From NCBI RefSeq assembly GCF_016903815.1, contig NZ_CP069973.1: DNA of 64,000 nt; one strand, written 5' to 3'. Positions 1 to 52,770 of this stretch are shown here, one piece after another; the first letter of the stretch is position 1; each line of letters starts with the position of its first letter. The position numbers and the translations under genes were made by a program. Source of the DNA: Escherichia coli (GTDB lineage: Bacteria > Pseudomonadota > Gammaproteobacteria > Enterobacterales > Enterobacteriaceae). The notes under the pieces are model-generated. The model saw only the letters and a list, made by a program, of their open reading frames with translations, searched no databases and had not been told where the DNA came from.

Positions 1-593
1 ACGCTGGTGGGGGAATCCATCGAGCCGGTAAGGAAAGCAATCTCCTGATGTCCGGCGTTTATCAACTCTGCCACGGCGTTAAAGCTGGTCTGTTTATGAT
101 CGCACCAGACGCTATGGCTGCTGTTTTTGCGCAGGCGGCGATTAAGCACCATTATCGGCTGACTGTGTGCGTCAATGATGTCATCAATCTCATCCACGCT
201 TAAAAAACGCGGGTAAATCATAATGGCGTCGCAGCGCAAATCCAGCAGATACTGAATCGCCTGGCGCTCTTCTTCGGCGCTGTGTTTACCATCTGCCAAT
301 AGCAACTGTCGCCCTTTCTCTTCCGCCATTCGCGCGGCATGAAACAGTAATTCACTAAAATAAATGCCGTGGTAAAGCGTGTTGGTCACGACCAGCCCCA
401 GCGTCTGAGTACTCTTCGCCGACAGATTGCGCGCCAGCAAGTTTGGACGGTAACCGCTCTCTTCTACCGCCTGAAACACGCGATCTTTAGTCTCCTGGCT
501 GACGTAGCCATTACCTGAAAGCACGCGGGAAACGGTCGCTTTTGAAACCCCGGCGCGCTTCGCCACTTCCAGCATCGTCGTCATCATTTTCAT
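1..593 (-). CDS. ascG: LacI-family repressor AscG, 5' part only; gene continues beyond window start
   Basis: Reverse-strand translation from ATG at 593..591 gives MKMMTTMLEVAKRAGVSKATVSRVLSG (LacI-type HTH); divergent from ascF; runs off the window edge so absent from ORF track. Confidence 0.8.
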   Translation of the reverse strand, partial: MKMMTTMLEVAKRAGVSKATVSRVLSGNGYVSQETKDRVFQAVEESGYRPNLLARNLSAKSTQTLGLVVTNTLYHGIYFSELLFHAARMAEEKGRQLLLADGKHSAEEERQAIQYLLDLRCDAIMIYPRFLSVDEIDDIIDAHSQPIMVLNRRLRKNSSHSVWCDHKQTSFNAVAELINAGHQEIAFLTGSMDSPTS

Positions 594-843: not shown

Positions 844-3734
<2,891 letters not shown>

Positions 3735-3761
3735 GTAACTACCGTCGCACGAACCAGGAAA

Positions 3762-3800
3762 GCCCGATAAGCGTTGCGCATCGGGCAATCTTGGGTTTGG
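3762..3800 (+). terminator. Candidate hairpin downstream of ascB (7-bp stem gcccgat/atcgggc)
   Basis: Inverted repeat 3762..3768 / 3780..3786 between convergent ascB and the antitoxin gene; weak T tract. Confidence 0.3.
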
Positions 3801-3812
3801 CATCAGTCAAAA

Positions 3813-4232
3813 TCAAAGAAACCATTCCGGCTTAACACCAAATCGGGCTGAAAGTGCCTTAATGTGGGATATCGTCAGGGATCGTTGCCCAGACAAAATC
3901 TGACTGACCAGGGATTTAGAGCCGATTTCGTTCTTCAAATCCGCGTAGGTCAGATTATGTTGATCAATCAGCGTACGAAGTAACGCCACGCCAACCGGCA
4001 TTGCTGCAACGGCTTTGTCGAACTCGGCAAACTTTTCGTTGTTGTTTTCATATTCTGCAATGCGGCTCGCCAGAAAGTCGATAAGTGGATTGGTGTCATC
4101 TTCTTCAATCAAATATTCGACCAGTTCCAGTGCTTCACGATAATCATCTTCTGAGTCACTACCTCCCAGAAAGGGGACTGCATTGACCAGTTCTCTTGTT
4201 GCTTTAACAGCGCGTGCAGCATTAGCAGTCAT
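3813..4232 (-). CDS. HigA-like antitoxin, XRE-family HTH
   Basis: 139-aa ORF; C-terminal HTH (EIGSKSLVSQILSGQRSLTISHIKALSARFGV) resembling E. coli HigA; overlaps upstream toxin gene by 4 bp. Confidence 0.75.
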   Translation of the reverse strand: MTANAARAVKATRELVNAVPFLGGSDSEDDYREALELVEYLIEEDDTNPLIDFLASRIAEYENNNEKFAEFDKAVAAMPVGVALLRTLIDQHNLTYADLKNEIGSKSLVSQILSGQRSLTISHIKALSARFGVKPEWFL

Positions 4233-4540
4233 TCTTTGTTCTCTCTGTAGTAACGTGTCAGTTTGTCATACTCTGCGTGATTCGTTATGTGCTTCACAAA
4301 GAACCGCTTATTAACAAAGTTTATGTAGGCAATAACCCTAAGATTGTTCCCGCCGACATCCAGAACGTACCATTTGTTGCGATATCTAAAATTGTCGAGG
4401 TTGGGAAACGCCGTTCGCATTTCTTCTGGTGTAGAAAAATCCGTTTCCTTAATAACCCGATACAATGAGTATAGAGCCAGAGCGTCGTTAGGATATTTGC
4501 GCGCACACTCTTCAAATGGCGCTTTCGAAATGATGTGCAT
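4229..4540 (-). CDS. HigB-like toxin (RelE/ParE superfamily mRNA interferase)
   Basis: 103-aa ORF resembling E. coli HigB (MH.I...A..D...KYP...FP.LDNF.Y....YV..VGGN.LRV.A...F......I....H.EYD); toxin-first order typical of higBA; AAGGAAG RBS. Confidence 0.75.
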   Translation of the reverse strand: MHIISKAPFEECARKYPNDALALYSLYRVIKETDFSTPEEMRTAFPNLDNFRYRNKWYVLDVGGNNLRVIAYINFVNKRFFVKHITNHAEYDKLTRYYRENKE

Positions 4541-4621
4541 TTTAACTTCCTTATTAGCGCCTGAATGACTAAACCTGGACTACCATTCCTTCGGATTTAT
4601 TTTCCTATAGTAGTTGATCAC

Positions 4622-4650
4622 ACGGGTGTTCACAATATGTAAACACCCGT
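4622..4650. promoter_or_regulatory. Perfect 9-bp inverted repeat ACGGGTGTT-N11-AACACCCGT upstream of the TA operon
   Basis: Palindrome seen directly, about 80 bp upstream of the toxin start, between hycI 3' end and toxin 5' end; candidate operator. Confidence 0.35.
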
Positions 4651-4706
4651 CTACACGTCACAATTGCACGTCCAAATTCCAAAACGTGAACATGTTTGTC
4701 TACGAA

Positions 4707-5177
4707 CTACTCTTCTTCCACCGCTAACTGCGCGAATCCGCCATTCCCTTCCCAGCCTTCCAGTCGTTGATAAACGGTTTCTACCGCATCTTTAATCGGC
4801 TGGGTCATCGGGTAGTAAAAGCCGACGATATCCGGCTGGATGCCGAGGAAAATCACTTCGCCAATGTCTTCTTTTAACTGGTCGATAAGGTAGTTCAACG
4901 GCATGTTATGGGTAGTCATCATAAACATCTCGGCGATATCATCCGGATCGATGATGCGGATCTCGCCGGGGTTTAGCCCCATATCCGTGGCGTCGACAAT
5001 CAGCAGTCGTGTCGGGCGCAGTTCGCGAATAGCGACAATGTCGTTTTCCGGTGCGCTACCGCCGTCAATCACCACCCAGTTACCTTTCGGCGCGGCGGCG
5101 CACTTTTCCGCCAGCAGCGGACCTGCGCCATCATCGCCCATCATGCTATTGCCAACACAGAGTAAAACGTCAGTCAC
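4707..5177 (-). CDS. hycI: Hydrogenase 3 maturation endopeptidase
   Basis: 156-aa ORF, last gene of hyc operon; matches recalled HycI. Confidence 0.9.
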   Translation of the reverse strand: MTDVLLCVGNSMMGDDGAGPLLAEKCAAAPKGNWVVIDGGSAPENDIVAIRELRPTRLLIVDATDMGLNPGEIRIIDPDDIAEMFMMTTHNMPLNYLIDQLKEDIGEVIFLGIQPDIVGFYYPMTQPIKDAVETVYQRLEGWEGNGGFAQLAVEEE

Positions 5178-6895: not shown

Positions 6896-8605
6896 TTATT
6901 TCAGCGGCGAGTTTTTACGCTCAATGCTGTAACGCTCGAGTTCTTTGTACGGCACCACTTTGCTCTTCTTCTTACGCACATCGACCACGGTCATGCGGTC
7001 GGTACAGGAGTAGCAAGGGTCCAGGCTACCGATAATCAGCGGCGCATCGGAAACGGTGTTGCCGCGCAGCATGTAGCGCAGGGTCGGCCAGTTCGCGTAG
7101 GTCGCGGCACGGCAGCGCCAGCGGTACAGCTTCTGGTTGTCGCCGGTCATGCTCCAGTGGATATCGTCGCCGCGCGGCGCTTCGGCAAAGCCCAGCGCAA
7201 AACGGTGCGGAATATAGGTAAAGCCTTCCACCATCAGCGGACCGCCCGGCAGGTTATCCAGACCGTAGTCGATCATGTTCAGCGCGGTATAGACCTCGTT
7301 GATACGCACTTTCAGACGGGAAATAACGTCGCAGCCCTGCTCGCTGTGGACTTCCATTGGCAGCAGGCCATAACCAACAAACGGGTGATCGGCACGGGTA
7401 TCGCGGGCGTGACCGCTGGCGCGGACCATCGGGCCAACGTTACTGAAATCGCGGGCGATTTCCGGGTCCAGACGACCAATGCCGACAGTACGCTGTTCCA
7501 TGTTCGGTGTGCTCAGCAGCACATCCACCAGCTCCTGCACTTCACGACGCATCTGTTGCGCCAACTGGCGGGTCTGGATCATGTCATCTTTCAGCAGATC
7601 GCGACGAATTCCGCCGATCAGGTTCAGGCCGTAGGTTTTACGCGCACCGGTAAGGATCTCTGCCATTTTCATGGAGGTTTCACGCACGCGGAAGAACTGC
7701 ATAAAGCCGGAGTCGAAGCCGGTAAAGTGACTGGCGAGGCCGAGGTTGAGCAGATGCGAGTGCAGGCGTTCTACCTCCAGCAGAATGGCGCGGATCATCT
7801 GCGCACGTTCTGGCACCTGAATACCCATCGCGTTTTCCACCGACGTGGTGTAGGCGGTGCTGTGAGCAAAGCCGCAGATCCCGCACACACGGTCAGAGAG
7901 GAAGGTCACTTCGTTGTAACCCATGCGGGTTTCCGCCAGTTTTTCCATGCCGCGATGGACATAGAACAGGCGGTAGTCGGCGTCGATAATGTTTTCGCCA
8001 TCGACGAACAGACGGAAGTGACCCGGTTCGTCGGAAGTGACGTGCAGCGGACCAATCGGCACGACGTTGTTTTTCTTGTCGCCCAGTTCGTTGATGAACT
8101 CGTAGGTTTCAGCATCGGTAGTCGGTGCCGGACGTTGACGATAATCCATGCTGTCTTTACGCAGCGGATAAAGTTCATCCGGCCAGTCATCCGGCAGCAC
8201 CAGACGACGTTCATCCGGCAGCCCTACCGGAATCAAACCGTACATATCGCGCACTTCACGCTCGCCCCATACCGCCGCCGGAACGCGCGGCGTTACGGAC
8301 GGATATTCCGGTTTGTTGGCGTCAACTTCAACGCGCACGGTTATCCAGCATTTGGTGCCCTTCTCCATCGACAGCACGTAGTAAACGGCGTAATGACCAT
8401 TAAGTTTGCGTTCGTCGTTACCAAACAGCACCGACAGCCAGCCCCCCTGCTTGTAGTAGAGAAACTCCACCACTTCCGGCAGGTAGTTCACCTTCACGGT
8501 CACGGTCAGCTGATCTTTGGTCTGCCAGGCGTGGTCCAGCACGACGCCCGGAAATGCCTCATTCAGCGCAGCGAGATAATGTTGACCTAATTTTTCTTCA
8601 GACAT
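6896..8605 (-). CDS. hycE: Hydrogenase 3 large subunit
   Basis: 569 aa from MSEEKLGQHYL; NiFe-hydrogenase large-subunit motifs (RVCGICGFAH, C-terminal DPCYSCTDR); ORF-track start over-extended by 7 codons. Confidence 0.9.
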   Translation of the reverse strand: MSEEKLGQHYLAALNEAFPGVVLDHAWQTKDQLTVTVKVNYLPEVVEFLYYKQGGWLSVLFGNDERKLNGHYAVYYVLSMEKGTKCWITVRVEVDANKPEYPSVTPRVPAAVWGEREVRDMYGLIPVGLPDERRLVLPDDWPDELYPLRKDSMDYRQRPAPTTDAETYEFINELGDKKNNVVPIGPLHVTSDEPGHFRLFVDGENIIDADYRLFYVHRGMEKLAETRMGYNEVTFLSDRVCGICGFAHSTAYTTSVENAMGIQVPERAQMIRAILLEVERLHSHLLNLGLASHFTGFDSGFMQFFRVRETSMKMAEILTGARKTYGLNLIGGIRRDLLKDDMIQTRQLAQQMRREVQELVDVLLSTPNMEQRTVGIGRLDPEIARDFSNVGPMVRASGHARDTRADHPFVGYGLLPMEVHSEQGCDVISRLKVRINEVYTALNMIDYGLDNLPGGPLMVEGFTYIPHRFALGFAEAPRGDDIHWSMTGDNQKLYRWRCRAATYANWPTLRYMLRGNTVSDAPLIIGSLDPCYSCTDRMTVVDVRKKKSKVVPYKELERYSIERKNSPLK

Positions 8606-24938: not shown

Positions 24939-26197
24939 TCAAGATTGGCGTTATCGCCGATGATTTTACCGGCGCGACGGATATCGCCAGTTTTCTGGTG
25001 GAAAACGGTCTACCAACGGTACAAATTAACGGTGTTCCAACAGGTAAAATGCCGGAAGCAATCGACGCACTGGTGATCAGCCTGAAAACGCGTTCCTGTC
25101 CGGTTGTTGAAGCCACACAGCAATCGCTGGCGGCTCTGAGCTGGTTGCAACAGCAAGGTTGCAAACAGATCTATTTCAAATACTGCTCTACTTTCGACAG
25201 TACGGCGAAAGGTAATATCGGCCCGGTTACCGATGCATTAATGGATGCTCTCGACACGCCGTTTACGGTCTTCTCTCCGGCCCTGCCGGTCAACGGACGT
25301 ACGGTTTATCAGGGGTATTTGTTCGTAATGAATCAACTGCTGGCCGAATCTGGGATGCGCCATCACCCGGTAAATCCCATGACCGACAGCTATCTTCCCC
25401 GTCTGGTTGAAGCGCAATCCACAGGGCGCTGCGGCGTCGTTTCGGCACATGTTTTCGAACAAGGTGTGGATGCCGTTCGTCAAGAGCTGGCTCGCTTACA
25501 GCAAGAGGGCTACCGCTACGCGGTGCTTGATGCGCTGACCGAACACCATCTGGAAATTCAGGGAGAAGCCTTGCGCGATACCCCACTGGTAACGGGCGGT
25601 TCTGGTCTGGCGATTGGCCTTGCCCGGCAGTGGGCGCAAGAAAACGGTAACCAGGCTCGCAAAGCAGGGCATCCGCTCGCTGGGCGCGGCGTAGTGCTCT
25701 CCGGTTCATGCTCTCAAATGACCAACCGCCAGGTAGCACATTACCGTCAAATTGCACCAGCCCGTGAAGTTGATGTGGCACGCTGCCTCTCAATTGAAAC
25801 TCTGGCCGCTTATGCACACGAACTGGCAGAGTGGGTTCTGGGCCAGGAAAGTGTACTTGCTCCACTGGTTTTTGCCACCGCCAGCACTGACGCATTGGCA
25901 GCAATTCAACAGCAATACGGTGCACATAAAGCCAGTCAGGCAGTAGAAACACTGTTTTCTCAACTAGCAGCGCGGTTAGCAGCGGAAGGCGTGACACGCT
26001 TTATTGTCGCAGGCGGTGAGACCTCCGGCGTAGTCACACAGAGCCTGGGAATAAAAGGGTTTCATATTGGCCCAACCATTTCTCCCGGCGTGCCGTGGGT
26101 AAACGCACTGGATAAACCTGTCTCACTCGCCCTTAAATCTGGCAACTTCGGTGATGAAGCCTTTTTTTCACGAGCCCAAAGAGAGTTTTTATCATGA
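24935..26197 (+). CDS. ygbK: 3-oxo-tetronate kinase (four-carbon acid sugar kinase family)
   Basis: 420-aa ORF overlapping ygbJ stop (ATGA). Confidence 0.8.
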   Translation: MIKIGVIADDFTGATDIASFLVENGLPTVQINGVPTGKMPEAIDALVISLKTRSCPVVEATQQSLAALSWLQQQGCKQIYFKYCSTFDSTAKGNIGPVTDALMDALDTPFTVFSPALPVNGRTVYQGYLFVMNQLLAESGMRHHPVNPMTDSYLPRLVEAQSTGRCGVVSAHVFEQGVDAVRQELARLQQEGYRYAVLDALTEHHLEIQGEALRDTPLVTGGSGLAIGLARQWAQENGNQARKAGHPLAGRGVVLSGSCSQMTNRQVAHYRQIAPAREVDVARCLSIETLAAYAHELAEWVLGQESVLAPLVFATASTDALAAIQQQYGAHKASQAVETLFSQLAARLAAEGVTRFIVAGGETSGVVTQSLGIKGFHIGPTISPGVPWVNALDKPVSLALKSGNFGDEAFFSRAQREFLS

Positions 26198-42068: not shown

Positions 42069-43106
42069 ATGTTTTCCGCATTGCGCCACCGTACCGCTGC
42101 CCTGGCGCTCGGCGTATGCTTTATTCTCCCCGTACACGCCTCGTCAGCTAAACCTGGCGATTTTGCTAATACTCAGGCACGACATATTGCTACTTTCTTT
42201 CCGGGACGCATGACCGGAACTCCTGCAGAAATGTTATCTGCCGATTATATTCGCCAACAGTTTCAGCAAATGGGTTATCGCAGTGATATTCGGACATTTA
42301 ATAGTCGGTATATTTATACCGCCCGCGATAATCGCAAGAGCTGGCATAACGTGACGGGAAGTACGGTGATTGCCGCTCATGAAGGCAAAGCGCCGCAGCA
42401 GATCATCATTATGGCGCATCTGGATACTTACGCCCCGCTGAGCGATGCTGACGCCGATGCCAATCTCGGCGGACTGACGTTACAAGGAATGGATGATAAC
42501 GCTGCAGGTTTAGGTGTCATGCTGGAACTGGCAGAACGCCTGAAAAATACGCCTACCGAGTATGGTATTCGATTTGTGGCGACCAGCGGCGAAGAGGAAG
42601 GGAAATTAGGCGCTGAGAATTTACTCAAGCGGATGAGTGACACCGAAAAGAAAAATACGCTGCTGGTGATTAATCTCGATAACTTAATTGTTGGCGATAA
42701 ATTGTATTTCAACAGCGGTGTAAAAACCCCTGAAGCAGTAAGGAAATTAACGCGCGACAGGGCGCTGGCAATTGCGCGTAGTCATGGAATTGCCGCAACG
42801 ACCAATCCGGGTTTGAATAAAAATTATCCGAAGGGTACTGGCTGTTGTAATGATGCCGAAGTTTTCGACAAAGCCGGTATTGCCGTACTTTCAGTAGAAG
42901 CAACAAATTGGAATCTTGGGAATAAGGATGGTTATCAGCAACGCGCAAAAACAGCTGCATTCCCTGCGGGAAATAGCTGGCATGACGTAAGACTGGATAA
43001 TCAACAACATATTGATAAGGCACTTCCTGGAAGAATAGAACGTCGCTGCCGTGATGTTATGCGGATAATGCTACCGCTGGTGAAGGAGCTGGCGAAGGCG
43101 TCTTGA
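42069..43106 (+). CDS. iap: Alkaline phosphatase isozyme conversion aminopeptidase
   Basis: 345 aa with signal peptide; M28 peptidase family. Confidence 0.85.
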   Translation: MFSALRHRTAALALGVCFILPVHASSAKPGDFANTQARHIATFFPGRMTGTPAEMLSADYIRQQFQQMGYRSDIRTFNSRYIYTARDNRKSWHNVTGSTVIAAHEGKAPQQIIIMAHLDTYAPLSDADADANLGGLTLQGMDDNAAGLGVMLELAERLKNTPTEYGIRFVATSGEEEGKLGAENLLKRMSDTEKKNTLLVINLDNLIVGDKLYFNSGVKTPEAVRKLTRDRALAIARSHGIAATTNPGLNKNYPKGTGCCNDAEVFDKAGIAVLSVEATNWNLGNKDGYQQRAKTAAFPAGNSWHDVRLDNQQHIDKALPGRIERRCRDVMRIMLPLVKELAKAS

Positions 43107-43126
43107 TGGGTTTGAAAATGAGAGCT

Positions 43127-43155
43127 GGGAGTTCTACCGCAGGGGCGGGGAACTC
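43127..43155 (-). repeat. Decayed CRISPR repeat remnant (19/29 match) one unit beyond the array
   Basis: gggagttctaccgcaggggcggggaactc aligns to the repeat with 16/19 identity over the 3' 19 nt and lies exactly 61 bp before repeat 1. Confidence 0.45.
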
Positions 43156-43187
43156 CAAGTGATGTCCATCATCGCATCCAGTGCGTC

Positions 43188-43765
43188 CGGTTTATCCCCG
43201 CTGACGCGGGGAACACGTCAATAGGCGGCGTCCCGTAGCCGTCCCCTTCGGTTTATCCCCGCTGGCGCGGGGAACACGTTGAGGTCGATAAGTACGAACG
43301 GTTTCCCTGCGGTTTATCCCCGCTGGCGCGGGGAACACGATCGCCTGCTCCAGCGTCACTCCCTGCCCCTCGATTTATCCCCGCTGGCGCGGGGAACACT
43401 TCTGATACGTACTGAGGCCGGTTGTGATACGCGATTTATCCCCGCTGGCGCGGGGAACACTAACCCCCAATGAAGTTAATAAAGTCTATGGCCGATTTAT
43501 CCCCGCTGGCGCGGGGAACACATGAGATTAAAATACTCAGTACTCTTACTCGCCGATTTATCCCCGCTGGCGCGGGGAACACCAGCGTGGCGCGATAAAG
43601 CAATGTGTCTGGCTCGATTTATCCCCGCTGGCGCGGGGAACACCAGAGGCAACCGACGCGGATTCAGTAGGAAAGCGATTTATCCCCGCTGGCGCGGGGA
43701 ACACCGATAGACACTTTGCGGTCATTGTCTATTCGGCGATTTATCCCCGCTGGCGCGGGGAACAC
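43188..43765 (-). CRISPR. Type I-E CRISPR array: 10 repeats of 29 bp, 9 spacers of 32 bp
   Basis: Repeats start at 43188, 43249, 43310, 43371, 43432, 43493, 43554, 43615, 43676, 43737 (61-bp period); plus-strand consensus CGGTTTATCCCCGCTGGCGCGGGGAACAC; repeat 1 is degenerate (GCTGACGCG); repeats 4-10 carry CGATTT variant. Confidence 0.97.
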
Positions 43766-43861
43766 ACTAAGCATACATAACTGTTTTTAAACAAATTTAT
43801 TCCGCATCAACAATCTACCAACTAAATTAAAACATTTCCTTATTTTTAAAGAACAGATAAC
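43766..43861 (-). promoter_or_regulatory. AT-rich CRISPR leader between array and cas2
   Basis: About 95 bp AT-rich sequence adjacent to the non-degenerate repeat end. Confidence 0.75.
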
Positions 43862-45071
<1,210 letters not shown>

Positions 45072-45075
<4 letters not shown>

Positions 45076-45722
45076 GCCTCTGCTCCGGGTTTGATCAGCA
45101 TCAGACCACAGCCGAACGCGCGGCTTTTGCCATACCCCTGGCTCAGACGTTGCAGAAATAACCCAGGATCGGTGACCGTAAGCATCCCCGTATAATCCAC
45201 GCTACTGAACTGGATCAGTTGCCGGGAGTTTTCCCGCCGCAGTTGCTGTTGTCGGTAGGCATCGACCGAGGTATCCAGTAGTGTAAAACCGCTTCTTTCC
45301 CCCTGCGCTGCCAGCCAGTCCAGCGCCGCCTGTTGTTGATGCAACCAGACATCACTTCCTTCCACCTGCCCCCTCACCTGCCGTTTCGCCTCCATCAGCA
45401 AGTCGTGGCGTTTGCCCGCTTTACAAATTGTTGGATTCGCCCGCAGGTTGAAACAAAGGGATTGTCCGGTACGCAACTCTGGCGCAAATGGTCGGCATTC
45501 GATGGTGAAAATATCACTTTCCGCCGGGCGTTCCTGCGACAGGACAAAAAAGCGAAACGCCCCCTGGAGTTCTTCCCGACGATAAAGAAATTGCCTTTCT
45601 TTGCCGCCAGGAAAAAGATCCCACAGCCACTGATGCATTACATATTCACCGCGACCCACCAAATGCAGCAACTGCGCAGGCAAAAGCTGGCCGGTATGTA
45701 AGGTTATTCTTGAGAGGTACAT
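45072..45722 (-). CDS. cas6e: Cas6e (CasE) pre-crRNA endoribonuclease
   Basis: About 216 aa from MYLSRITL; ORF-track N-terminal extension overlaps cas5e and is rejected. Confidence 0.85.
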
Positions 45723-46450
45723 GGTTCCTCCTTGCTGAGCCACGGCCCCTGATTGATGGTGCGTTCCCCAAACAGCCACTGCTGACGATTTAAAGGAACA
45801 TCCCGGCGACGTAATATTTTGCTCGCGACCAGGCCGTCGTGTTCCCCTTCCCACCAGCATTCATCCTGAAGTTTCGGGAGTGAGACTTTCAGTTCGCGGA
45901 AACTATCCTGATACTGTTGGTATGCGTTACGTAAGACATCAGACGCGTTGCCTTCGAGCAGTAACGGCGCAAGTGGTAACGCCAGCGGATGACTTTTTCG
46001 CCCCAGATAAAGCGGAAAAACCGGATGACGTAAACCGTCCTGCAACTGTTCAAGCCTGTAAGACGCATCGGGGGTTGTTGCCACCGCCACCATCCACCAG
46101 GCATCGGTGTAGTAGTCGCGCCGGGAGATAATCGCGCTCAGAAGATCAGGGGCGCTCAACTCTTCGCGACGGCTGAAATAACGCGCTTTACGCACCTCTT
46201 TTGGCATCTGGACCGTGTGATAATCCCGTGCCCAGCGCGGGTTACGGCTGGCGCAAACCACCAGTGAATAGTGGCGGTTAAACGCGTTTAATCGTTCGGT
46301 ATCATCACGCCGAATCCCTACCCCGGCAGCCAGCAGCCCCAGCAATGCTGAGCGCGAAGGCAGTTCATGGGTATGACGCACTTCGCCGGGGGCATCGACG
46401 CCCCAGGATGCCATTGGCCCATGAAGCTGAAAAATCAAATATTGGCTCAT
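45704..46450 (-). CDS. cas5: Cas5e (CasD) Cascade subunit
   Basis: 248 aa; MSQYLIFQLHGPMASWG matches Cas5e N-terminal motif; GGGGCGG RBS. Confidence 0.85.
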   Translation of the reverse strand: MSQYLIFQLHGPMASWGVDAPGEVRHTHELPSRSALLGLLAAGVGIRRDDTERLNAFNRHYSLVVCASRNPRWARDYHTVQMPKEVRKARYFSRREELSAPDLLSAIISRRDYYTDAWWMVAVATTPDASYRLEQLQDGLRHPVFPLYLGRKSHPLALPLAPLLLEGNASDVLRNAYQQYQDSFRELKVSLPKLQDECWWEGEHDGLVASKILRRRDVPLNRQQWLFGERTINQGPWLSKEEPCTSQE

Positions 46451-46460
46451 TAGCCGCCCC

Positions 46461-47516
46461 TTACGCGCAGATAAAGTCCAGCACGTCCTTCATGCTTCCC
46501 TGTTTGTTCATCACGTCAAAGCTTACGCATTCGGTCTTCTGTTCATAGACCGTATTCATATTTTCGCGAAGCGTTGTAATACGCTGCACCGCCACATCTA
46601 ACTGCCGGGTGCCATTAATGGGTTCATAGAAAGCCGCCGCCAGAGAGCGTGGTTGTTCAGTGCCTTTTTCTGCCAGCGCCCAGGAGGCGTAGGCACGGCT
46701 GGCAAAGCTGTTCTGTTTGCCGGTTGGGGAGACTTTAAGTGCGGCTTCCGTAAAGGCGCGCAAGGTCTGATTAGCTAACGCTTCGTCACCGCCGAGGTTT
46801 TCGACCAGCAGATCTTTATCGATGCAGATATAGGTGTAGAACAGCGCAGAACCGAATCCGGTTTCACCAAGATGCCCGGCACCGGCATCTTCAGAAGCCT
46901 GGCGCAAATCATCAACGGCGGTGAAAAAATCATCTTCGACAATCGTTTCACTGACACCAAATGCATGCGCGACCTGGCAGGCGGCTTCAACATTAAATTC
47001 GGGTTTATTCGCCAGCATACGACCAAACATAGCGATATCTACCGCCATGCGATCTTTACGTAACAAAGCGAGATCTTCCTCTTTTGGCGCGCGCTTTTCT
47101 TCGGCCAGTTGATGGGCCAGCGCTTTTACGGCGTCAAATTCTGCCGGGCTGATATGGACTAGCTGTTCAGTTTCGGCGTTAGTGAGCGGATCTTTTGGTT
47201 TTTTGTCGTTTTTAGCTTTCCCAAGATAATCCGCAATTTTTGCCGCCCATTCGATGGCTTTTTTCTCTTCGATGCCTTTCTCAATCAGGATAGTTGCCGC
47301 CTCACGCGCAATACGCCCACTGCGAATACCAATATGGCCCGCCAGTGCCTGTTCAAAAAGTGCAGAAGTGCGCCACGCACGTTTCAGACTTTGTGAGGAA
47401 ACGCGCAGACGCGTTGCTCCACCCAGTACCACAGTTTTTGGCGCACCGGTGTCATCACGGTTAAGGTTGGCAGCAGGGTAAGCGGTTAACAAATGAAGCT
47501 GAATAAATGTCGTCAT
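46461..47516 (-). CDS. cas7: Cas7e (CasC) Cascade backbone subunit
   Basis: 351 aa; N-terminal IQLHLLTAYPAANLNRDD resembles K-12 CasC. Confidence 0.85.
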   Translation of the reverse strand: MTTFIQLHLLTAYPAANLNRDDTGAPKTVVLGGATRLRVSSQSLKRAWRTSALFEQALAGHIGIRSGRIAREAATILIEKGIEEKKAIEWAAKIADYLGKAKNDKKPKDPLTNAETEQLVHISPAEFDAVKALAHQLAEEKRAPKEEDLALLRKDRMAVDIAMFGRMLANKPEFNVEAACQVAHAFGVSETIVEDDFFTAVDDLRQASEDAGAGHLGETGFGSALFYTYICIDKDLLVENLGGDEALANQTLRAFTEAALKVSPTGKQNSFASRAYASWALAEKGTEQPRSLAAAFYEPINGTRQLDVAVQRITTLRENMNTVYEQKTECVSFDVMNKQGSMKDVLDFICA

Positions 47517-47530
47517 GAGATAGTCCTTTA

Positions 47531-48067
47531 TTAATTTTGTTCGTTATCGGCGTCGCCAGCCTGGTAATATTCCAGCGCCCAGCGGATACGGATAAATTCT
47601 GTTGGCCGCTGCTGGCGGCGGTGATGATTGAGCAGGTCGTCGCTCTCCTGGCACCAGCGGAAAATATCTTCTGCCAAAGAGATAAGATTGACGGAACCAT
47701 TTAATAATTTGACCGCGCGACGTAACTGACGCAGTAAATCATCAGGCGTTTTTACTGCCGACAGGCGAGTAAAACGCCCCTCCGACATTACCGCCGCCAG
47801 CTGCGCGGCAAAAGGCTGCCGTTCATCAATAGCTTTAACATTGGCGCTAACTGCGGCGACCAGCGCCAGTGCGGTAAAACGCCACTCTTGTGCTTCAATT
47901 TTCCACAAAGTGTGGGTCTGCATCAGCAGAGAACGAAACCCTTCTGACAGACAAACATCATTAACCGTTGTGCTACGCCGCAGACTGGCACGATTGCCGC
48001 GTTTTTCCTGCAACTCTTCGTGCCATTTACGCAGCGTGGCTTTGTGCTCCTCTTTTACAATACTCAT
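47531..48067 (-). CDS. cse2: Cse2 (CasB) Cascade small subunit
   Basis: 178-aa basic alpha-helical ORF between cse1 and cas7. Confidence 0.8.
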   Translation of the reverse strand: MSIVKEEHKATLRKWHEELQEKRGNRASLRRSTTVNDVCLSEGFRSLLMQTHTLWKIEAQEWRFTALALVAAVSANVKAIDERQPFAAQLAAVMSEGRFTRLSAVKTPDDLLRQLRRAVKLLNGSVNLISLAEDIFRWCQESDDLLNHHRRQQRPTEFIRIRWALEYYQAGDADNEQN

Positions 48068-49626
48068 TCAGCAGCCTCCTGCTTTTTCTCCCTGGCGGCT
48101 TTAGCATTTTGCTTCTCCGCCGATGTTGTAAAATATTTCTTGCGCGCGGTCATGACGCGTTTCAAATCAACGGGCTCATATGGATTGGTGAAGACACGCT
48201 CGTCAAAATCCTGACGCGCGAATAACCAAATTTCCTTTTGCCATTTGCTGAGTAATTCATCCGCATCCTGACCTTCTTCAATGTGGCGCACTAACCTCAG
48301 GAAGCGATGCTGAGTTTTGTTCCAGAAGTCGATATCCACAAAACTGAAATCACCCCGTGCACCTTTTGGATCGGAGAACCACGCTTCTTTCAATGCACTC
48401 CGTAACAGACTCAGAATCCGTGAAGCCGTTTGCGCAGCCAGCCGCAGCTTCGGTATCTGGCCTTCTTTTTTATCGAGCAGCAGCGGAAAATGGTGTTCGT
48501 ACCAACAGCGCGCTTTCATGTTGTCAAAATCATAACCAAATCCCCACAGGCCCACTTTTGCCTGCTTGAGACTGCTGGCATTAAAGAGTTTCACCACCAG
48601 CGCGGGAAGTTCCGTATTGTTTTCTGATTTACCCGTTTCGATAAGGCCTAACCAGTCGCGCCAGATTAAACCGCCTGGTTGTGGTTTGACCGAGTAAAAC
48701 TCGCCGCCCTCTTTAAGGGGTACACGGTAAGGCGTTAAGGGATGCTGCCACATGGCATAATTCGCGCCGTAATTTTTGGTCGTCATCAGGCTCAGGAGCG
48801 CGTCGTTCTGCTCGCCGCAAATATCGCAGTTGCCGACTGTCGTGGTATTAAAATCAATACGAATACGCCGCGGCATTCCCCAGTACGCCTGGAGTTTATT
48901 AACCTGATCATCGGTTACCACCGCACCGGCCAGTTCGCTGGTACGCGTCGGGCCAAGCCAGGGGAAAACCAGATCGTCAAATTTTTTGGGTAGCGGTAAG
49001 TCGGCTTCGTCCTGCGGCATCACATTGAGCCACAGTTTGCGCCACAAGGGCGTTTGTTGATTGCCCTGATATTCCTGTAATTCAATCAGAGTGGTCATCG
49101 GCCCACCGCCGCGTAAACCGGTGCGGTAGCCTTTACCACCTGACGGCGCATTTAACTGTAGGGAGAACAGAGCTAACGCAGAACAATGTGGGCACAGGTA
49201 TTCCGTTACACCACGCTTGATAAAGTGGTCTTTATTAAACTTCGTTGTTTGAGCGCCGGGAATCTCAGGCAGTAGCGAAGCGACCTGAACTTTATCTCCT
49301 GTGAGCGCCTCGAAATCCTGCATAAATGAAGGGGAATCTGGCCCAAACTGGAAAGCGTGTTCTAAGGACAGCAATGCTTCCCGTAGCTTTTCAGATTCCA
49401 GTCCGTCTTCCCAGATATCATCCCAACGACGATGATCTTTTGGCGCAAAGCTGGTTTGTAGTAGCCCCAGCAAAAACTGCCATGCCGCTCCCTGGAGATC
49501 TGCCCGTGGCGCAGCAATATCGACAACATTTTCATCCGCCAGATCGACAGGCGCCAGTTTGCCTGTCGTTCCGTCTTTATAACGAACGGGCAACCACGGG
49601 GTTGTCAGAAGTGAAAACGAGTTCAT
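48064..49626 (-). CDS. cse1: Cse1 (CasA) Cascade large subunit
   Basis: About 520 aa from MNSFSLLTTPWLPV; start chosen 6 nt after GAGG (ORF track begins 49695). Confidence 0.8.
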   Translation of the reverse strand: MNSFSLLTTPWLPVRYKDGTTGKLAPVDLADENVVDIAAPRADLQGAAWQFLLGLLQTSFAPKDHRRWDDIWEDGLESEKLREALLSLEHAFQFGPDSPSFMQDFEALTGDKVQVASLLPEIPGAQTTKFNKDHFIKRGVTEYLCPHCSALALFSLQLNAPSGGKGYRTGLRGGGPMTTLIELQEYQGNQQTPLWRKLWLNVMPQDEADLPLPKKFDDLVFPWLGPTRTSELAGAVVTDDQVNKLQAYWGMPRRIRIDFNTTTVGNCDICGEQNDALLSLMTTKNYGANYAMWQHPLTPYRVPLKEGGEFYSVKPQPGGLIWRDWLGLIETGKSENNTELPALVVKLFNASSLKQAKVGLWGFGYDFDNMKARCWYEHHFPLLLDKKEGQIPKLRLAAQTASRILSLLRSALKEAWFSDPKGARGDFSFVDIDFWNKTQHRFLRLVRHIEEGQDADELLSKWQKEIWLFARQDFDERVFTNPYEPVDLKRVMTARKKYFTTSAEKQNAKAAREKKQEAAE

Positions 49627-49723: not shown

Positions 49724-52423
49724 TCAACCAACCTTGCCAGTCAATCCTTCCATAGCCGAATACCCGCAACTTTCGTCATCGGTAACTAAAATCACGTTTG
49801 CCATCTCCGGATCTTTCCGCTGTTCAATGCACCACTGCCTGAACGCTTCCCCTTCCAGTAAAGAAAACTCATCCCGATGTTTTTTCCACCAGCTTCGACG
49901 CACTCTGACAACGCTCATTTCCCATGCGTGAGCACCGTTGGCATAAGGCTTCACCACACTGGCAATACAGGTAGCCAGCCACAGGGAAACAGACTCCTCC
50001 GCCAGACGTGTCGACAGCTTTTCCGGAAGGTAATCGTTGATATTGGCGGCATAGCCAGGCCTGAAGTTCAGCACAAACTTTTTAGCCATTGCGCGATCGC
50101 AGTAATATTTGCCCACTTGCTCCTGCTCGCTGCGGGCAAATCCTTCCGGCATTACCACGTCCTCACCGTAGACTGATTCAATAAGAAGGCGGGCTGCGTG
50201 TGGCATTTGAATAGCGCCTTGCTCACGCAGTACACGCTGCGTCAGCCAGATTCGTCCATGATCGGGATAGACATATGCACTGTTACGCATGGCACTGCCG
50301 AACCATTCGTCACCTGGAGCGTCGTCCCAGACGGGGGCCAGAATCAGCAATTCAGGAGGGGAACGCTCGTCTTTTCCGTCACGCTTTAACTGACCATTAA
50401 TATCGCGGATATGCCGCTGTAATCGCCCCGCTCGCTGGATCAGCAAATCAACAGGGGCCAGGTCGGAAATCATTTCGTCCATATCGCAATCAACGCTCGA
50501 CTCTAAGACCTGAGTACAAATGAGGACTTTTCCGGCACGCTGTGAGCTATCTTCTTTACCGAAGCGTGCCAGCGTTTCCGTTTCAATTCGCTGGCGATCG
50601 CTAAAAGCAAAGCGGCTATGAAACAGAGAAAGGCTGGAAGCAGGAATGACGCCGCGGGCAAGCAACTGACGATAAACCTTAATAGCGTCATCGACAGAAT
50701 TCCGGATCCAGGCGATGCATTTCCCCTGACTTACTGCCGATTCGATACGCGCAATACATTCTTGTTCGCTATGAAGCCAACCCACGCTCACGCTACGCTC
50801 AACGTCTTTGCGCGTCGCTACCCGGTGTGAATGCACATCGGATTTCGTAACGTGCGTCAGCCAGGGGTAATCATCCTTTTCCAGGAACGGAGCTTCTTGC
50901 TGGCCCTCTGTACCACGCGCAAAGGCAGCAACGAGTTTGTCGCACTGCTGTTGAGATAACGTGGCAGAAAGCAAAATGACGCTGTTTCCGCCACGCGCCT
51001 GCCGCTCGATCAGCCCTTCAAGAATGCATGACATGTAAGCGTCACAGGCATGGATCTCATCAGCCAGCAGGATTTTGTTACTCAGTCCCAGAAGCCGCAG
51101 ATTATTATGTTTGAACGGCATCACAGCCATCATCGCCTGATCCAGCGTGCCGACGCCAATTTCAGCCAGTAGCGCCTTCTTGTTACTGTCGGCAAACCAG
51201 GCCGCACATCCCTGACTGAACGTTTGTTCATCCGGTTCTTCTGACCCGACTAAATCACCGGACCAGAGTGATTCATTAAAGCGGTCCATTAATGTTCGGG
51301 CACTGTGTGCCAGCACCAGGCTGGGGCGGGACTCTGGCGAATAGAAAGCAAGCCAGGTTTTGACCAGTCGATCGTACATGGCATTGGCCGTTGCCATTGT
51401 TGGCAGGCCAAAAAACAAACCCTGCGCTTTACCCGCAGCCATCAACCTGTGCGCCAGGATAAGCGCCGCTTCCGTTTTACCTGCGCCAGTCACATCTTCC
51501 AGAATAAATAACTGTGGCCCTGGCTGGCTGATATCCAGATCCAGCACCTTTTGCTGTAACGGTGTCGGATTCTCAATAAAAGGAAACAGCGTATTAATTC
51601 CGGTGAAAGGCGCGACTTTTGCTTTTAGAGGAAAGACGGTTAAGGCGTTTTGAGCCTGAACTAAAGTTTTCTGCCAGTAACCTTTAATATCCATTGGGTG
51701 TGCGACGCGTGGAAAAAATCGCGTTGACGAACCCGTCCAGTCTGCGAGCACGACGGTTGCAGAGATATACCAGGAAAGGTGTTTTATAAGTTCAATGCCC
51801 TCATCATCATCCCAGAATGCGGGGATCTCTATGAGCGGAAACAGTGGTTTGATTTCAAGAAGAAAATCTCGCGCGGCAGCTTTGTCTTCAGGCAGAAAAT
51901 TATCCAGTTCATCAATACGGTCAGGCGGGCGACCATGATGCCCGGTAGTTATGGGCATCCACATCTCCATCACCCGTTTAAGTTTGCGCGGAGAGAGTGA
52001 AGATGAAGGAAGCAATTCTTCGTATTCACTTAAATAATGATGCCACAGCCAGTAGCCCAGCGTTGAATGAGAGATCTTTTCGTAATTCTTTCTTGCGCCT
52101 TCCGGAACCTTGAGTTGTGGGTGCAGGTAAAGTTGCTGAAAAGAGCGGGCAAATTTTCCAGTATCGTGCCAGCACAATAGCCAGGCGAAAAATTGTGCTG
52201 CCTGCTCCGTATCAGCGAAACCTAGTTGACGAAAATAGTCAGTCAGCCCGAAGCAATTGCTTTTAACCATTAAATAGCCCATCGCGGCTACATCCAGCGA
52301 ATGCCAGCAAAGAAGGTGATAGTCGTCGCCCCCGTCTTTCTCGCCGCGTCGGGTTTTTCCCCAGAAATCAAAAAAAGTCACAATATTTTTATCCTTCAGT
52401 AAACTTAAAGGATATTTACGCAT
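49724..52423 (-). CDS. cas3: Cas3 HD nuclease / SF2 helicase
   Basis: 899 aa; N-terminal HD domain, Walker A (DVTGAGKTEAA), DEAH-like box (LADEIHACD). Confidence 0.9.
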   Translation of the reverse strand: MRKYPLSLLKDKNIVTFFDFWGKTRRGEKDGGDDYHLLCWHSLDVAAMGYLMVKSNCFGLTDYFRQLGFADTEQAAQFFAWLLCWHDTGKFARSFQQLYLHPQLKVPEGARKNYEKISHSTLGYWLWHHYLSEYEELLPSSSLSPRKLKRVMEMWMPITTGHHGRPPDRIDELDNFLPEDKAAARDFLLEIKPLFPLIEIPAFWDDDEGIELIKHLSWYISATVVLADWTGSSTRFFPRVAHPMDIKGYWQKTLVQAQNALTVFPLKAKVAPFTGINTLFPFIENPTPLQQKVLDLDISQPGPQLFILEDVTGAGKTEAALILAHRLMAAGKAQGLFFGLPTMATANAMYDRLVKTWLAFYSPESRPSLVLAHSARTLMDRFNESLWSGDLVGSEEPDEQTFSQGCAAWFADSNKKALLAEIGVGTLDQAMMAVMPFKHNNLRLLGLSNKILLADEIHACDAYMSCILEGLIERQARGGNSVILLSATLSQQQCDKLVAAFARGTEGQQEAPFLEKDDYPWLTHVTKSDVHSHRVATRKDVERSVSVGWLHSEQECIARIESAVSQGKCIAWIRNSVDDAIKVYRQLLARGVIPASSLSLFHSRFAFSDRQRIETETLARFGKEDSSQRAGKVLICTQVLESSVDCDMDEMISDLAPVDLLIQRAGRLQRHIRDINGQLKRDGKDERSPPELLILAPVWDDAPGDEWFGSAMRNSAYVYPDHGRIWLTQRVLREQGAIQMPHAARLLIESVYGEDVVMPEGFARSEQEQVGKYYCDRAMAKKFVLNFRPGYAANINDYLPEKLSTRLAEESVSLWLATCIASVVKPYANGAHAWEMSVVRVRRSWWKKHRDEFSLLEGEAFRQWCIEQRKDPEMANVILVTDDESCGYSAMEGLTGKVG

Positions 52424-52617: not shown

Positions 52618-52770
52618 CTACTTCTTCGATTCGTAAGCGAGAACTGCCTTAAACTCCATACCACGTTCTCTGATACTCAACTCACACAACGAGTCGCCTA
52701 CCATCAGCGTGAATCCCAGTACTGTACAACACAGTACGATGATTGCCACAAGGGCATATTTTGTCAGCAT
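52618..52770 (-). CDS. Hok/Gef-family type I toxin (small membrane peptide)
   Basis: Hand-translated 50-aa [53 protein letters not shown]; GGGAGG RBS; Hok signature (TM helix, LCE, AYES); below ORF-track length cutoff. Confidence 0.75.

Follow-up and report, generated by a model that had tools for sequence, protein, structure and literature searches.

The window, the 64,000-nt stretch of Escherichia coli DNA analyzed here (contig NZ_CP069973.1), holds a CRISPR array between iap and cas2, with a set of cas genes adjoining its leader and, between cas3 and cysH, a toxin gene of the hok/gef family (Table 1). A CRISPR locus next to iap was first seen in 1987. The locus is the classical type I-E CRISPR2.1 (CRISPR-I) array of E. 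coli; the array is real but ordinary, and the locus is already known.

Array and repeat structure

We located the repeats with a repeat finder and in a coordinate table of our own, and both reproduced the ten repeats of exact 61-bp periodicity that a sequence-only reading of this DNA had described. The array spans 43188-43765, with 29-bp repeats that match the consensus at 28-29 of 29 positions in all ten copies, and with nine distinct spacers of uniform 32-bp length between them. Regular repeats, unique spacers of equal length, an AT-rich leader and a degenerate distal repeat, together with neighboring cas genes and spacer matches to mobile elements with a consistent motif, are the general features of a CRISPR array. 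The earlier call of a CRISPR array is further borne out by the NCBI pipeline, which annotates 'CRISPR' at the equivalent of 43191-43765 in a genome identical over 22.9 kb, and by the eight type I-E cas genes that adjoin the array. Tandem Repeats Finder left the array unreported, its sole report being a 12-bp repeat within iap, as expected for units whose spacers interrupt the tandem similarity. Scanning 42500-44500 against Rfam at E-values up to 1 gave no match, including to the repeats, which says little because very short repeat models score poorly.

Repeats 2 and 3 are the consensus, CGGTTTATCCCCGCTGGCGCGGGGAACAC, and repeat 1 carries a single change (GCTGACGCG). The coordinate table confirms that repeats 4-10 share a variant CGATTT start, and all ten repeats end in AACAC, the repeat form of CRISPR-A (PMC3737337). 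RNA folding predicts the same hairpin for both repeat variants, a tetraloop on a 7-bp stem with a folding energy between -15.1 and -15.2 kcal/mol, and 7 nt (UAAACCG or UAAAUCG) on its 3' side. A 29-bp repeat with a stable predicted hairpin near its 3' part and a predicted 8-nt 5' handle is of the type I-E form. The G-to-A change reported earlier for repeat 1 is present, but its assignment to the stem does not hold: folding places it in the tetraloop, where in the crRNA sense it turns GCCA into GUCA, with the energy still -15.2 kcal/mol.

Table 1. Features of the CRISPR-Cas locus, listed by position in the window.
Feature	Coordinates	Strand	Evidence
iap, aminopeptidase (alkaline phosphatase isozyme conversion), old-end neighbor	42069..43106	+	NCBIfam NF007568, 704.6 bits
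Decayed 'anchor' repeat, + strand GGGAGTTCTACCGCAGGGGCGGGGAACTC	43127..43155	-	19/29 to consensus, 61 bp before repeat 1
Anchor spacer ('spacer 0'), CAAGTGATGTCCATCATCGCATCCAGTGCGTC	43156..43187	-	32 nt, remnant to repeat 1
Repeat 1, terminal, leader-distal, CGGTTTATCCCCGCTGACGCGGGGAACAC	43188..43216	-	28/29; tetraloop change, fold unchanged
Spacer 1 (oldest)	43217..43248	-	Matches only within other E. coli CRISPR arrays, widely shared
Repeat 2 (consensus)	43249..43277	-	29/29
Spacer 2	43278..43309	-	32/32, type IV coupling protein gene, 31-kb plasmid pGF50-E
Repeat 3 (consensus)	43310..43338	-	29/29
Spacer 3	43339..43370	-	Matches only in other strains' CRISPR arrays
Repeat 4, first CGATTT copy, crRNA sense ...AUAAAUCG	43371..43399	-	28/29; fold unchanged
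Spacer 4	43400..43431	-	31/32, PAM ATG, portal gene of GF131 prophage
Repeat 5 (CGATTT variant)	43432..43460	-	Coordinate table
Spacer 5	43461..43492	-	32/32, PAM AAG, tRNA-Leu/yecA prophage of LCP30S3_I5, position 7858
Repeat 6 (CGATTT variant)	43493..43521	-	Coordinate table
Spacer 6, true sequence ATGAGATTAAAATACTCAGTACTCTTACTCGC	43522..43553	-	32/32, PAM ATG, tRNA-Leu/yecA prophage
Repeat 7 (CGATTT variant)	43554..43582	-	Coordinate table
Spacer 7	43583..43614	-	Coordinate table; targetless in phages, plasmids, E. coli genomes
Repeat 8 (CGATTT variant)	43615..43643	-	Coordinate table
Spacer 8	43644..43675	-	Match only in one other strain's CRISPR array
Repeat 9 (CGATTT variant)	43676..43704	-	Coordinate table
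Spacer 9 (newest)	43705..43736	-	Targetless; beside spacer 2 in array deletion variant
Repeat 10, leader-proximal (CGATTT variant)	43737..43765	-	Coordinate table
Leader, 96 bp, cas2 stop to repeat 10	43766..43861	-	Aligns along its length with K-12 CRISPR-I leader
cas2e	43862..44155	-	TIGR01873, 130 bits; 81% identical to K-12 Cas2
cas1e	44152..45075	-	TIGR03638, 381 bits; 84% identical to K-12 Cas1
cas6e (casE)	45072..45722	-	TIGR01907, 286 bits; 27% identical to K-12
cas5e (casD)	45704..46450	-	TIGR01868, 159 bits; 30% identical to K-12
cas7e (casC)	46461..47516	-	TIGR01869, 448 bits; 28% identical to K-12
cse2 (casB)	47531..48067	-	TIGR02548, 103 bits; 21% identical to K-12
cse1 (casA)	48064..49626	-	TIGR02547, 609 bits; 21% identical to K-12
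cas3	49724..52423	-	Passes the models for the Cas3 HD and helicase cores; 27% identical to K-12
Toxin gene of the hok/gef family, between cas3 and cysH	52618..52770	-	Annotated in strain 7/2; ORF translates cleanly

Cas operon and flanking genes

The cas operon starts 96 bp from repeat 10 and is complete and uninterrupted: all eight genes score above the NCBIfam I-E cut-offs and have zero internal stops. It contains the type I-E signature, cse1 and cse2 with cas7e, cas5e, cas6e, cas3, cas1e and cas2e. Against models built on the K-12 type, cse1 falls far under the cut-off of the K-12-specific PRK09693, and cas3 reaches 421 bits with PRK09694, for which the cut-off is 569. The leader has a GC content of 25% versus 53% for the window. 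At the old end, Iap is 98.8% identical to that of K-12 and is annotated as iap in the identical strain 7/2. The Hok/Gef coding sequence between cas3 and cysH is the arrangement of the cas-E1 variant; hok/sok is found in all strains except carriers of the K-12-type E2 genes (PMC3903273).

Spacers and their targets

A search of the spacers with inspection of PAMs had been proposed by the sequence-only reading, and we ran it against 50,697 phage records, 72,556 plasmids and 5,426 E. coli genomes at E-values up to 1-5. Eight of the nine spacer strings it had listed are exact, but its string for spacer 6 starts a base too soon, on the repeat's final C. Four spacers match a prophage or plasmid at 31-32 of 32 positions next to an AWG motif, three of them at CAT and one at CTT. 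These four AWG-flanked protospacers match the CWT acquisition motif shown experimentally for the cas-E1 variant, CAT being the commonest in leader-A arrays (PMC3737337). The other five (spacers 1, 3, 7, 8 and 9) have no target in the phages, plasmids and E. coli genomes searched, and the PAM-proximal 22-mers of spacers 7, 8 and 9 are absent from IMG/VR. Within the window no spacer matches elsewhere, the best other site reaching 21/32, in agreement with what had been judged by eye.

The protospacer of spacer 2 has CAT as its plus-strand 3' flank, which is PAM ATG, and the spacer matches related plasmids at 29/33. The same portal gene also matches spacer 4 at 28-29/32 in the prophages of EC958 and LCP30S3_I5 and in vB_EcoM phage records, and the 32/32 protospacer of spacer 5 is present on three other chromosomes as well. 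For spacer 6 the protospacer lies at the initiation codon of a gene of the LprI family, in EC958 and many other chromosomes named as ST131; in IncFIB Klebsiella plasmids of ~110 kb the match is 31/32 with the flank ACG. The spacers record past contact with a conjugative plasmid and with a family of prophages that is today found widely among chromosomes named as ST131.

Spacers 4, 5 and 6 all map to the same strand of one prophage family (myovirus-type, at tRNA-Leu near yecA). The best matches for spacer 4 and for spacers 5-6 lie in different mosaic relatives of this prophage, with no single record holding them all, and three spacers would fall on one strand by chance alone with a probability of 1 in 4. 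Judged from the protospacer positions, three same-strand spacers from one prophage family would indicate the pattern that primed adaptation produces.

A decayed repeat-spacer unit at the iap end

One further unit lies beyond repeat 1, and the repeat finder also picked up its repeat within a repeat family. The earlier reading had described a 19/29 remnant exactly 61 bp beyond repeat 1 and abutting iap. The match and its register are confirmed, and the remnant does lie by iap, but strict abutment does not hold: the iap stop ends at 43106 and the remnant begins 20 nt after it. The unit is present in 2,462 of 5,426 complete E. coli genomes, once per genome at 90-100% identity, and K-12 MG1655 has the same remnant and following 32 nt downstream of iap, with a 1-nt insertion in its copy. 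A degenerated repeat with a fixed spacer at the iap end has been described as the 'anchor' repeat-spacer (Almendros 2014, PMC3903273). Register, distribution and this description together uphold the earlier view of an older, decayed repeat-spacer unit. RNA folding finds the canonical hairpin lost, and 43127-43187 is the ancient anchor unit, with a repeat that would be too diverged to form the Cas6e hairpin or to recombine with the working repeats.

That the 19/29 match is a chance similarity in the iap-array intergenic region is improbable in the extreme. Ten of the 29 positions differ, the canonical hairpin is not predicted, and an unrelated site at 25997 likewise scores 19/29; yet outside the array these two sites alone reach at least 19/29 among ~128,000 window positions on both strands, so the empirical chance of such a match at one pre-specified in-register position is ~1.6e-5, and 43127 is the site in register. 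The matches also cluster in the core, GCGGGGAAC, and in the C that flanks it, and the published description treats the unit as a degenerated repeat. Taking it, then, as a true decayed unit, one can ask whether it is maintained because it has its own function, blocking total loss of the array and offering a site at which cas/leader modules are exchanged, as Almendros et al. 2014 (PMC3903273) proposed for a diverged, non-recombining repeat. Its single copy per genome at high identity, and its presence in strains with cas sets as different as E1 (the window) and E2 (K-12), speak for this, but such conservation is typical of any neutral intergenic sequence within E. coli (Iap, for comparison, differs from that of K-12 by little more than one residue in a hundred), and the 1-nt insertion in K-12 means that the exact geometry is not maintained. 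We regard a maintained function as unlikely and prefer the reading of a decayed remnant. The anchor spacer gave only chance matches among phage records (Gordonia, Pseudomonas and Aeromonas phages). A 23/32 match lies in the tRNA-Leu prophage, and 3 of 2,000 shuffles scored as well; once ten spacers and several loci are corrected for, this is no more than suggestive.

Distribution and lineage

Positions 32000-54900 of the window are identical to strain 7/2, with 0 mismatches over 22,901 bases, and at least 30 complete E. coli genomes match 43000-43900 at 100% identity, with CRISPR, iap and cas2e annotated there. Among 5,426 complete genomes, ~120 have the identical spacer set; they come from a wide range of countries and hosts, and those typed from papers are ST405; the array matches arrays of strains published as ST405. 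Nine spacers unchanged in ~120 genomes mean that no spacer gain is visible within the lineage. The spacer set and the CGATTT repeat form a clean marker for these genomes, which include multidrug-resistant clinical strains published as ST405. A sister array has spacers 1-2-9; in it, spacers 2 and 9 flank a CGG-type repeat, and the leader-end repeat is CGA-type, an arrangement that fits internal deletion of spacers 3-8.

Capture of an array segment by ISEcp1-blaCTX-M-15

In the chromosome of sister strain Nord122 an ISEcp1-blaCTX-M-15 transposition unit lies inside spacer 6. The conjugative IncI1 plasmid pR11-698-2 holds an ISEcp1-blaCTX-M-15 unit with 165 bp of the array, namely repeat 6, spacer 5, repeat 5, spacer 4 and repeat 4. 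The sequences of these records show that the ISEcp1-blaCTX-M-15 unit carried the array piece onto pR11-698-2. Junctions that mark the capture are ATGAGATTAAACCGTATTCTG and GAGATTAAACCTCGATTTATCC. We rejected insertion by microhomology as the origin of the plasmid fragment, because Nord122 shows the intermediate, with the unit inside spacer 6.

The captured piece is oriented such that promoter read-through from ISEcp1/bla would be crRNA-sense. One could imagine this leaderless, plasmid-borne mini-array being processed by a recipient's cas-E1 Cascade, making the array a donor of portable memory, in which case a resistance plasmid would spread ready-made immunity against the prophage; we consider this speculation very improbable. 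The capture itself may be of interest for tracing the movement of resistance genes.

Proposed mechanism and activity

The type I-E biology behind the mechanism proposed here is that of Brouns 2008, Jore 2011 and Datsenko 2012. Diez-Villasenor 2013 (PMC3737337) gives it a further basis. From this established biology we infer that transcription of the array would proceed from the leader along the minus strand, and that the transcript would be processed by Cas6e, which, at the cleavage position taken from the K-12 and Thermus literature, would cut at the 3' base of every repeat hairpin. The products would be 61-nt crRNAs consisting of an 8-nt 5' handle (AUAAACCG for spacers 1-2, AUAAAUCG for spacers 3-9), the 32-nt spacer and a 21-nt hairpin handle. 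Cascade guided by these crRNAs would locate AWG-flanked protospacers and Cas3 would degrade the target. New spacers would be inserted by Cas1-Cas2 at the leader end with copying of the leader-proximal repeat, and this copying at each acquisition explains the CGATTT pattern of the repeats: once spacer 3 was in place, the repeat that was then first would have undergone one C-to-T change (crRNA sense), and all six subsequent acquisitions would have inherited it.

Whether this genuine CRISPR-Cas locus does any of this in nature is another matter, and it may be inert, silenced, gaining no spacers and giving no immunity, and useful as a lineage marker only; we hold this to be a serious possibility, though on balance we lean the other way. 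The constant spacer content of the ~120 complete genomes of diverse origin is what an inert record would look like, the variants seen being only losses (the 1-2-9 deletion) or disruption by ISEcp1. Published work (PMC10910852) describes E. coli arrays as stable over years and E. coli I-E systems as transcriptionally repressed in the laboratory. A simple sigma-70 promoter/terminator scan of 43000-44200 gave no hits of either kind and so no promoter in the leader, which could be added to this side; taken alone, the result neither supports nor excludes a leader promoter. Set against inertness are the eight intact cas genes and the experimental acquisition of spacers by Cas1-Cas2 of the cas-E1 variant (PMC3737337). 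In addition, three successive spacers from one strand of one prophage suggest past priming, and hence past Cascade activity. In ten sampled array-bearing genomes the one match each is the array itself, the protospacer being present in 0 of 10, whereas several hundred genomes without the array carry the targeted prophage sites, a contrast that is confounded by phylogeny.

Comparison with known systems

The locus is almost certainly the type I-E iap/cas2 array in its majority non-K-12 variant (cas-E1/cas-EO, leader-A (L1), CRISPR-A; PMC3737337, PMC3903273). The two share the position between iap and cas2, the 29-bp type-2 AACAC repeat, 32-bp spacers, a leader that adjoins cas2, a complete I-E operon that has diverged from the K-12 one, hok between cas3 and cysH, a CWT (AWG) motif with CAT predominant, and the degenerated repeat with fixed spacer at the iap end. 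AACAC repeats, K-12-diverged cas genes, hok, the CWT motif and the anchor unit place the array within the variant, from which it shows no difference in kind; specific to it are its set of nine spacers and the CGATTT change in repeats 4-10.

K-12 MG1655, of the cas-E2/leader-T/CRISPR-T type, shares the chromosomal locus, the anchor unit, the 61-bp unit and a homologous leader, and the loop of its terminal repeat is altered in a related way (GCTGATGCG). Its Cas1 and Cas2 are 84% and 81% identical to those of the window, whereas Cas6e, Cas5e, Cas7e, Cse2, Cse1 and Cas3 are merely 21-30% identical. Its repeat has T where the array here has A at the penultimate leader-side position (AACTC versus AACAC), its array has zero working spacers in common with this one, and it has sokX where a hok gene is annotated in the window. 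K-12 acquires spacers almost only at CTT (AAG), in contrast to the CWT used by the cas-E1 variant (PMC3737337). The AACAC end and the 21-30% identity of Cascade and Cas3 thus exclude the array from the K-12 type.

The third comparison is with primed adaptation. In type I-E systems, primed adaptation is known from Datsenko 2012, Swarts 2012 and Fineran 2014. The likeness lies in consecutive spacers 4-6 from one strand of one mobile element; the difference is that here the pattern is seen in natural spacer content only, in three spacers, and across mosaic prophage relatives. The locus in the window is a textbook E. coli CRISPR in the commonest variant, already annotated in identical public genomes, and adds one more natural example of a CAT-biased motif and priming-like spacer clustering in an under-studied, non-K-12 variant.

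Array structure and repeat history

A repeat finder recovered ten in-register copies of the 29-bp repeat with every start-to-start interval at 61 bp, and together with our own coordinate table this reproduced the exact periodicity described in the sequence-only reading. A second repeat-finder family connects 43137-43158 with the repeat cores. Repeats 2-3 are CGGTTTATCCCCGCTGGCGCGGGGAACAC and repeat 1 is GCTGACGCG, a single change from these. That reading had placed the G-to-A change in the stem, which is wrong: the repeat folds into a 7-bp stem with a tetraloop, and RNA folding puts the change in the loop with the energy the same. The spacers, numbered from 1 (oldest, iap end) to 9 (newest, leader end), had been transcribed exactly in eight of nine cases, the string for spacer 6 being off by one base (true sequence ATGAGATTAAAATACTCAGTACTCTTACTCGC). 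The absence of any spacer match elsewhere in the window, previously judged by eye, held up, the best scoring at most 21/32.

The leader spans 96 bp from the cas2 stop to repeat 10, has 25% GC and aligns over its full length to the K-12 CRISPR-I leader. A minus-strand reading direction is indicated by the leader's position, by the orientation of the repeats, by degeneration at the far end and by the side carrying the protospacer motif.

In type I-E systems spacers enter at the leader end, with duplication of the leader-proximal repeat. A CGATTT start was confirmed in all of repeats 4-10 and occurs in no others, a pattern explained by one change in the then-first repeat after acquisition of spacer 3, then copied onward. 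Judged from sequence, the six later acquisitions in exact 29 + 32 geometry show the variant repeat to be a seemingly competent integration template. In crRNA sense, this change gives spacers 3-9 the 5' handle AUAAAUCG in place of AUAAACCG.

Coordinates of the array and of related sites (window positions unless another record is named)
Feature	Position	Strand	Remark
Decayed repeat	43127-43155		toward iap
Anchor spacer	43156-43187		toward iap
29-bp repeats	43188 + 61n, n = 0-9; last end 43765		own coordinate table
Spacer 6	43522-43553		true bounds
Other 19/29 site	25997-26025		without neighbouring repeats
hok/gef-family toxin ORF	52618-52770	-	50 aa; between cas3 and cysH; marker of cas-E1 arrangement
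Prophage, EC958 (L008)	4487-46700		
Prophage, LCP30S3_I5 (L009)	from 5496		
Anchor-spacer match, LCP30S3_I5 (L009)	7551-7582		23/32; Gp157-family gene
Spacer 6 match, K. pneumoniae NZ_CP097699.1 (L003)	4002-4033		LprI-family gene start
Captured array fragment, pR11-698-2 (L004)	4970-5134		165 bp
GAGATTAAA site, pR11-698-2 (L004)	4960-4969		DUF1281 gene
ISEcp1-blaCTX-M-15-WbuC unit, Nord122 (L010)	1854-4915		~3 kb; inside spacer 6
GAGATTAAA site, Nord122 (L010)	1854-1864		spacer 6
Array with spacers 1-2-9, SCEC020023 (L014)	309-522		

The degenerate unit beside iap

The decayed repeat matches the repeat consensus at 19 of 29 positions. Only one other site outside the array reaches this score among ~128,000 window positions on both strands, and the empirical chance of 19/29 at a single in-register position is ~1.6e-5. 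That other site was taken as chance and served as a background calibrator. The sequence-only reading was correct in seeing an older decayed repeat-spacer unit toward iap, and the unit is already published, an "anchor" role having been suggested for it by Almendros et al. 2014 (PMC3903273). In K-12 MG1655 the remnant and its next 32 nt also directly follow iap, with one additional G, and the terminal repeat is likewise loop-altered (GCTGATGCG). Of 5,426 complete E. coli genomes, 2,462 contain a single copy of the 81 bp from the iap stop to repeat 1, with 90-100% identity and almost never with an annotation.

The anchor spacer, which is species-wide, aligns at 23/32 with a site in the tRNA-Leu/yecA prophage of strain LCP30S3_I5, 276 bp from a perfect spacer 5 protospacer but on the other strand. 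A score of 23 was reached by only 3 of 2,000 shuffles, and the phage collection held nothing better than 23/32.

Spacer targets and protospacer motifs

The nine spacers were concatenated and used to query collections of phages, plasmids and E. coli genomes. Spacers 1, 3, 7, 8 and 9 had no target in these three collections, and 22-mers of spacers 7-9 were absent from IMG/VR.

Protospacers found for the array (motifs in crRNA sense)
Spacer	Match	Motif	Target
2	32/32	ATG	type IV coupling-protein gene, 31-kb plasmid pGF50-E
4	31/32	ATG	prophage portal gene, strain GF131
4	28-29/32	ATG	portal gene, EC958 and LCP30S3_I5 prophages
5	32/32	AAG	LCP30S3_I5 prophage
6	32/32	ATG	LprI-family gene start, LCP30S3_I5 and EC958 prophages
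6	31/32	ACG	~110-kb IncFIB Klebsiella plasmids

Spacers 4, 5 and 6 all lie on one strand of a ~42 kb prophage that combines a lambda-like head module with a contractile tail module and is inserted next to tRNA-Leu, in the interval from pgsA to yecA. Three consecutive spacers against one element on one strand is the pattern left by primed adaptation; because the spacers number just three and their best hits are mosaic, the pattern is suggestive and not proof. The prophage was found in many chromosomes named as ST131, and the spacer 6 site is present in many more E. coli chromosomes, several named ST131. The LprI-family gene start is common to the E. coli prophage and the Klebsiella IncFIB plasmids, which are non-mobilizable and carry GIY-YIG nuclease and methyltransferase genes. 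Ten sampled array-bearing genomes contained no protospacer, the sole match being the array itself.

On the plus strand the motifs are three CAT and one CTT, in keeping with the CWT motif that experiments showed for spacer acquisition by the E1/cas-EO variant and with the predominance of CAT among leader-A arrays (PMC3737337).

Capture of an array fragment with ISEcp1-blaCTX-M-15

In the plasmid search, spacers 4 and 5 turned up together with their flanking repeats. The conjugative IncI1 plasmid pR11-698-2 (NZ_CP107157.1; E. coli R11, Sweden) carries 165 bp identical to the window, made up of repeats 4-6, spacers 4 and 5 and the initial 11 nt of spacer 6. This piece occupies the outer end of an ISEcp1-blaCTX-M-15-WbuC transposition unit, which sits within a DUF1281 gene and has produced a 5-bp duplication, TAAAC. 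The chromosome of the sister strain Nord122 (Germany, NZ_CP139853.1) has the same array as the window with such a unit inside spacer 6, splitting spacers 1-5 from the leader (junctions ATGAGATTAAA, then CCGTATT...CTAGG, then ATTAAAATACTC).

By its sequence, Nord122 shows the intermediate of capture, and the source of the plasmid fragment was evidently a chromosome like that of Nord122. ISEcp1 moves flanking DNA via surrogate right ends, which would account for the capture. In the searched plasmid and E. coli records, the junctions occurred only in Nord122 and pR11-698-2 and the 165-bp fragment in pR11-698-2 alone; a literature search found no paper joining an ISEcp1 transposition unit with a CRISPR array. 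ISEcp1/bla transcription would run in crRNA sense into the captured repeats in both records, in Nord122 toward spacers 5-1. Both insertion sites have the 9-mer GAGATTAAA, which could be a target preference or coincidence.

Distribution and activity of the array

About 120 complete genomes hold 80% or more of the spacer set (118 and 120 in two genome searches), and 121 records match the array region at 99% or more. Strains WCHEC4533 and WCHEC96200 on the array list are treated as ST405 (PMC9037040, PMC5762679), so that the array matches that of ST405 strains. Some relatives have a shortened array with spacers 1-2-9 only. The repeat separating spacers 2 and 9 is still of the CGG type there, consistent with internal loss of spacers 3-8 when two repeats recombined.

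That the array is unchanged across this many isolates suggests that few if any spacers were gained recently. On a rival view, with which this constancy is compatible, the type I-E system may now be mostly silent. We regard it as nearly certain that the locus is a genuine E1-variant type I-E array and that it works in the usual way when expressed. Its transcription, processing and present-day activity we infer: the leader would drive pre-crRNA transcription, Cas6e would cut the transcript to 61-nt crRNAs, Cascade would recognise AWG-flanked targets for degradation by Cas3, and Cas1-Cas2 would put new spacers in at the leader end.

Assignment to the E1 variant

Window 43000-43900 is 100% identical to the corresponding region of at least 30 complete E. 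coli genomes, which bears the annotation CRISPR, iap and cas2e, and window 32000-54900 has 0 mismatches over 22,901 bases to strain 7/2. There NCBI annotates the array at the equivalent of 43191-43765, with the gene order rpoS...cysD, iap, CRISPR, cas2e, cas1e, cas6e, cas5e, cas7e, casB, casA, cas3, hok, cysH. None of the eight cas ORFs of the window is interrupted, and each scores above its type I-E cut-off in NCBIfam. Anatomy and gene content were observed directly, as were the targets and their motifs.

Compared with K-12, Cas1 (84%) and Cas2 (81%) are similar, whereas Cas6e, Cas5e, Cas7e, Cse2, Cse1 and Cas3 have only 21-30% identity, and the K-12-specific NCBIfam models of CasA and Cas3 score under their cut-offs. 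The repeats end in AACAC, the CRISPR-A form, which accompanies leader-A and "cas-EO" genes of non-K-12 type (Diez-Villasenor et al. 2013, PMC3737337), the majority variant that Almendros et al. 2014 named E1/L1; hok/sok is present in every strain except those with K-12-type E2 genes (PMC3903273). The AACAC repeats, the diverged cas genes and hok therefore identify the locus as the common E1/cas-EO variant and not the K-12 model system. The feature is real, was rightly read from sequence and is already known, and the window agrees throughout with the published description of this locus.
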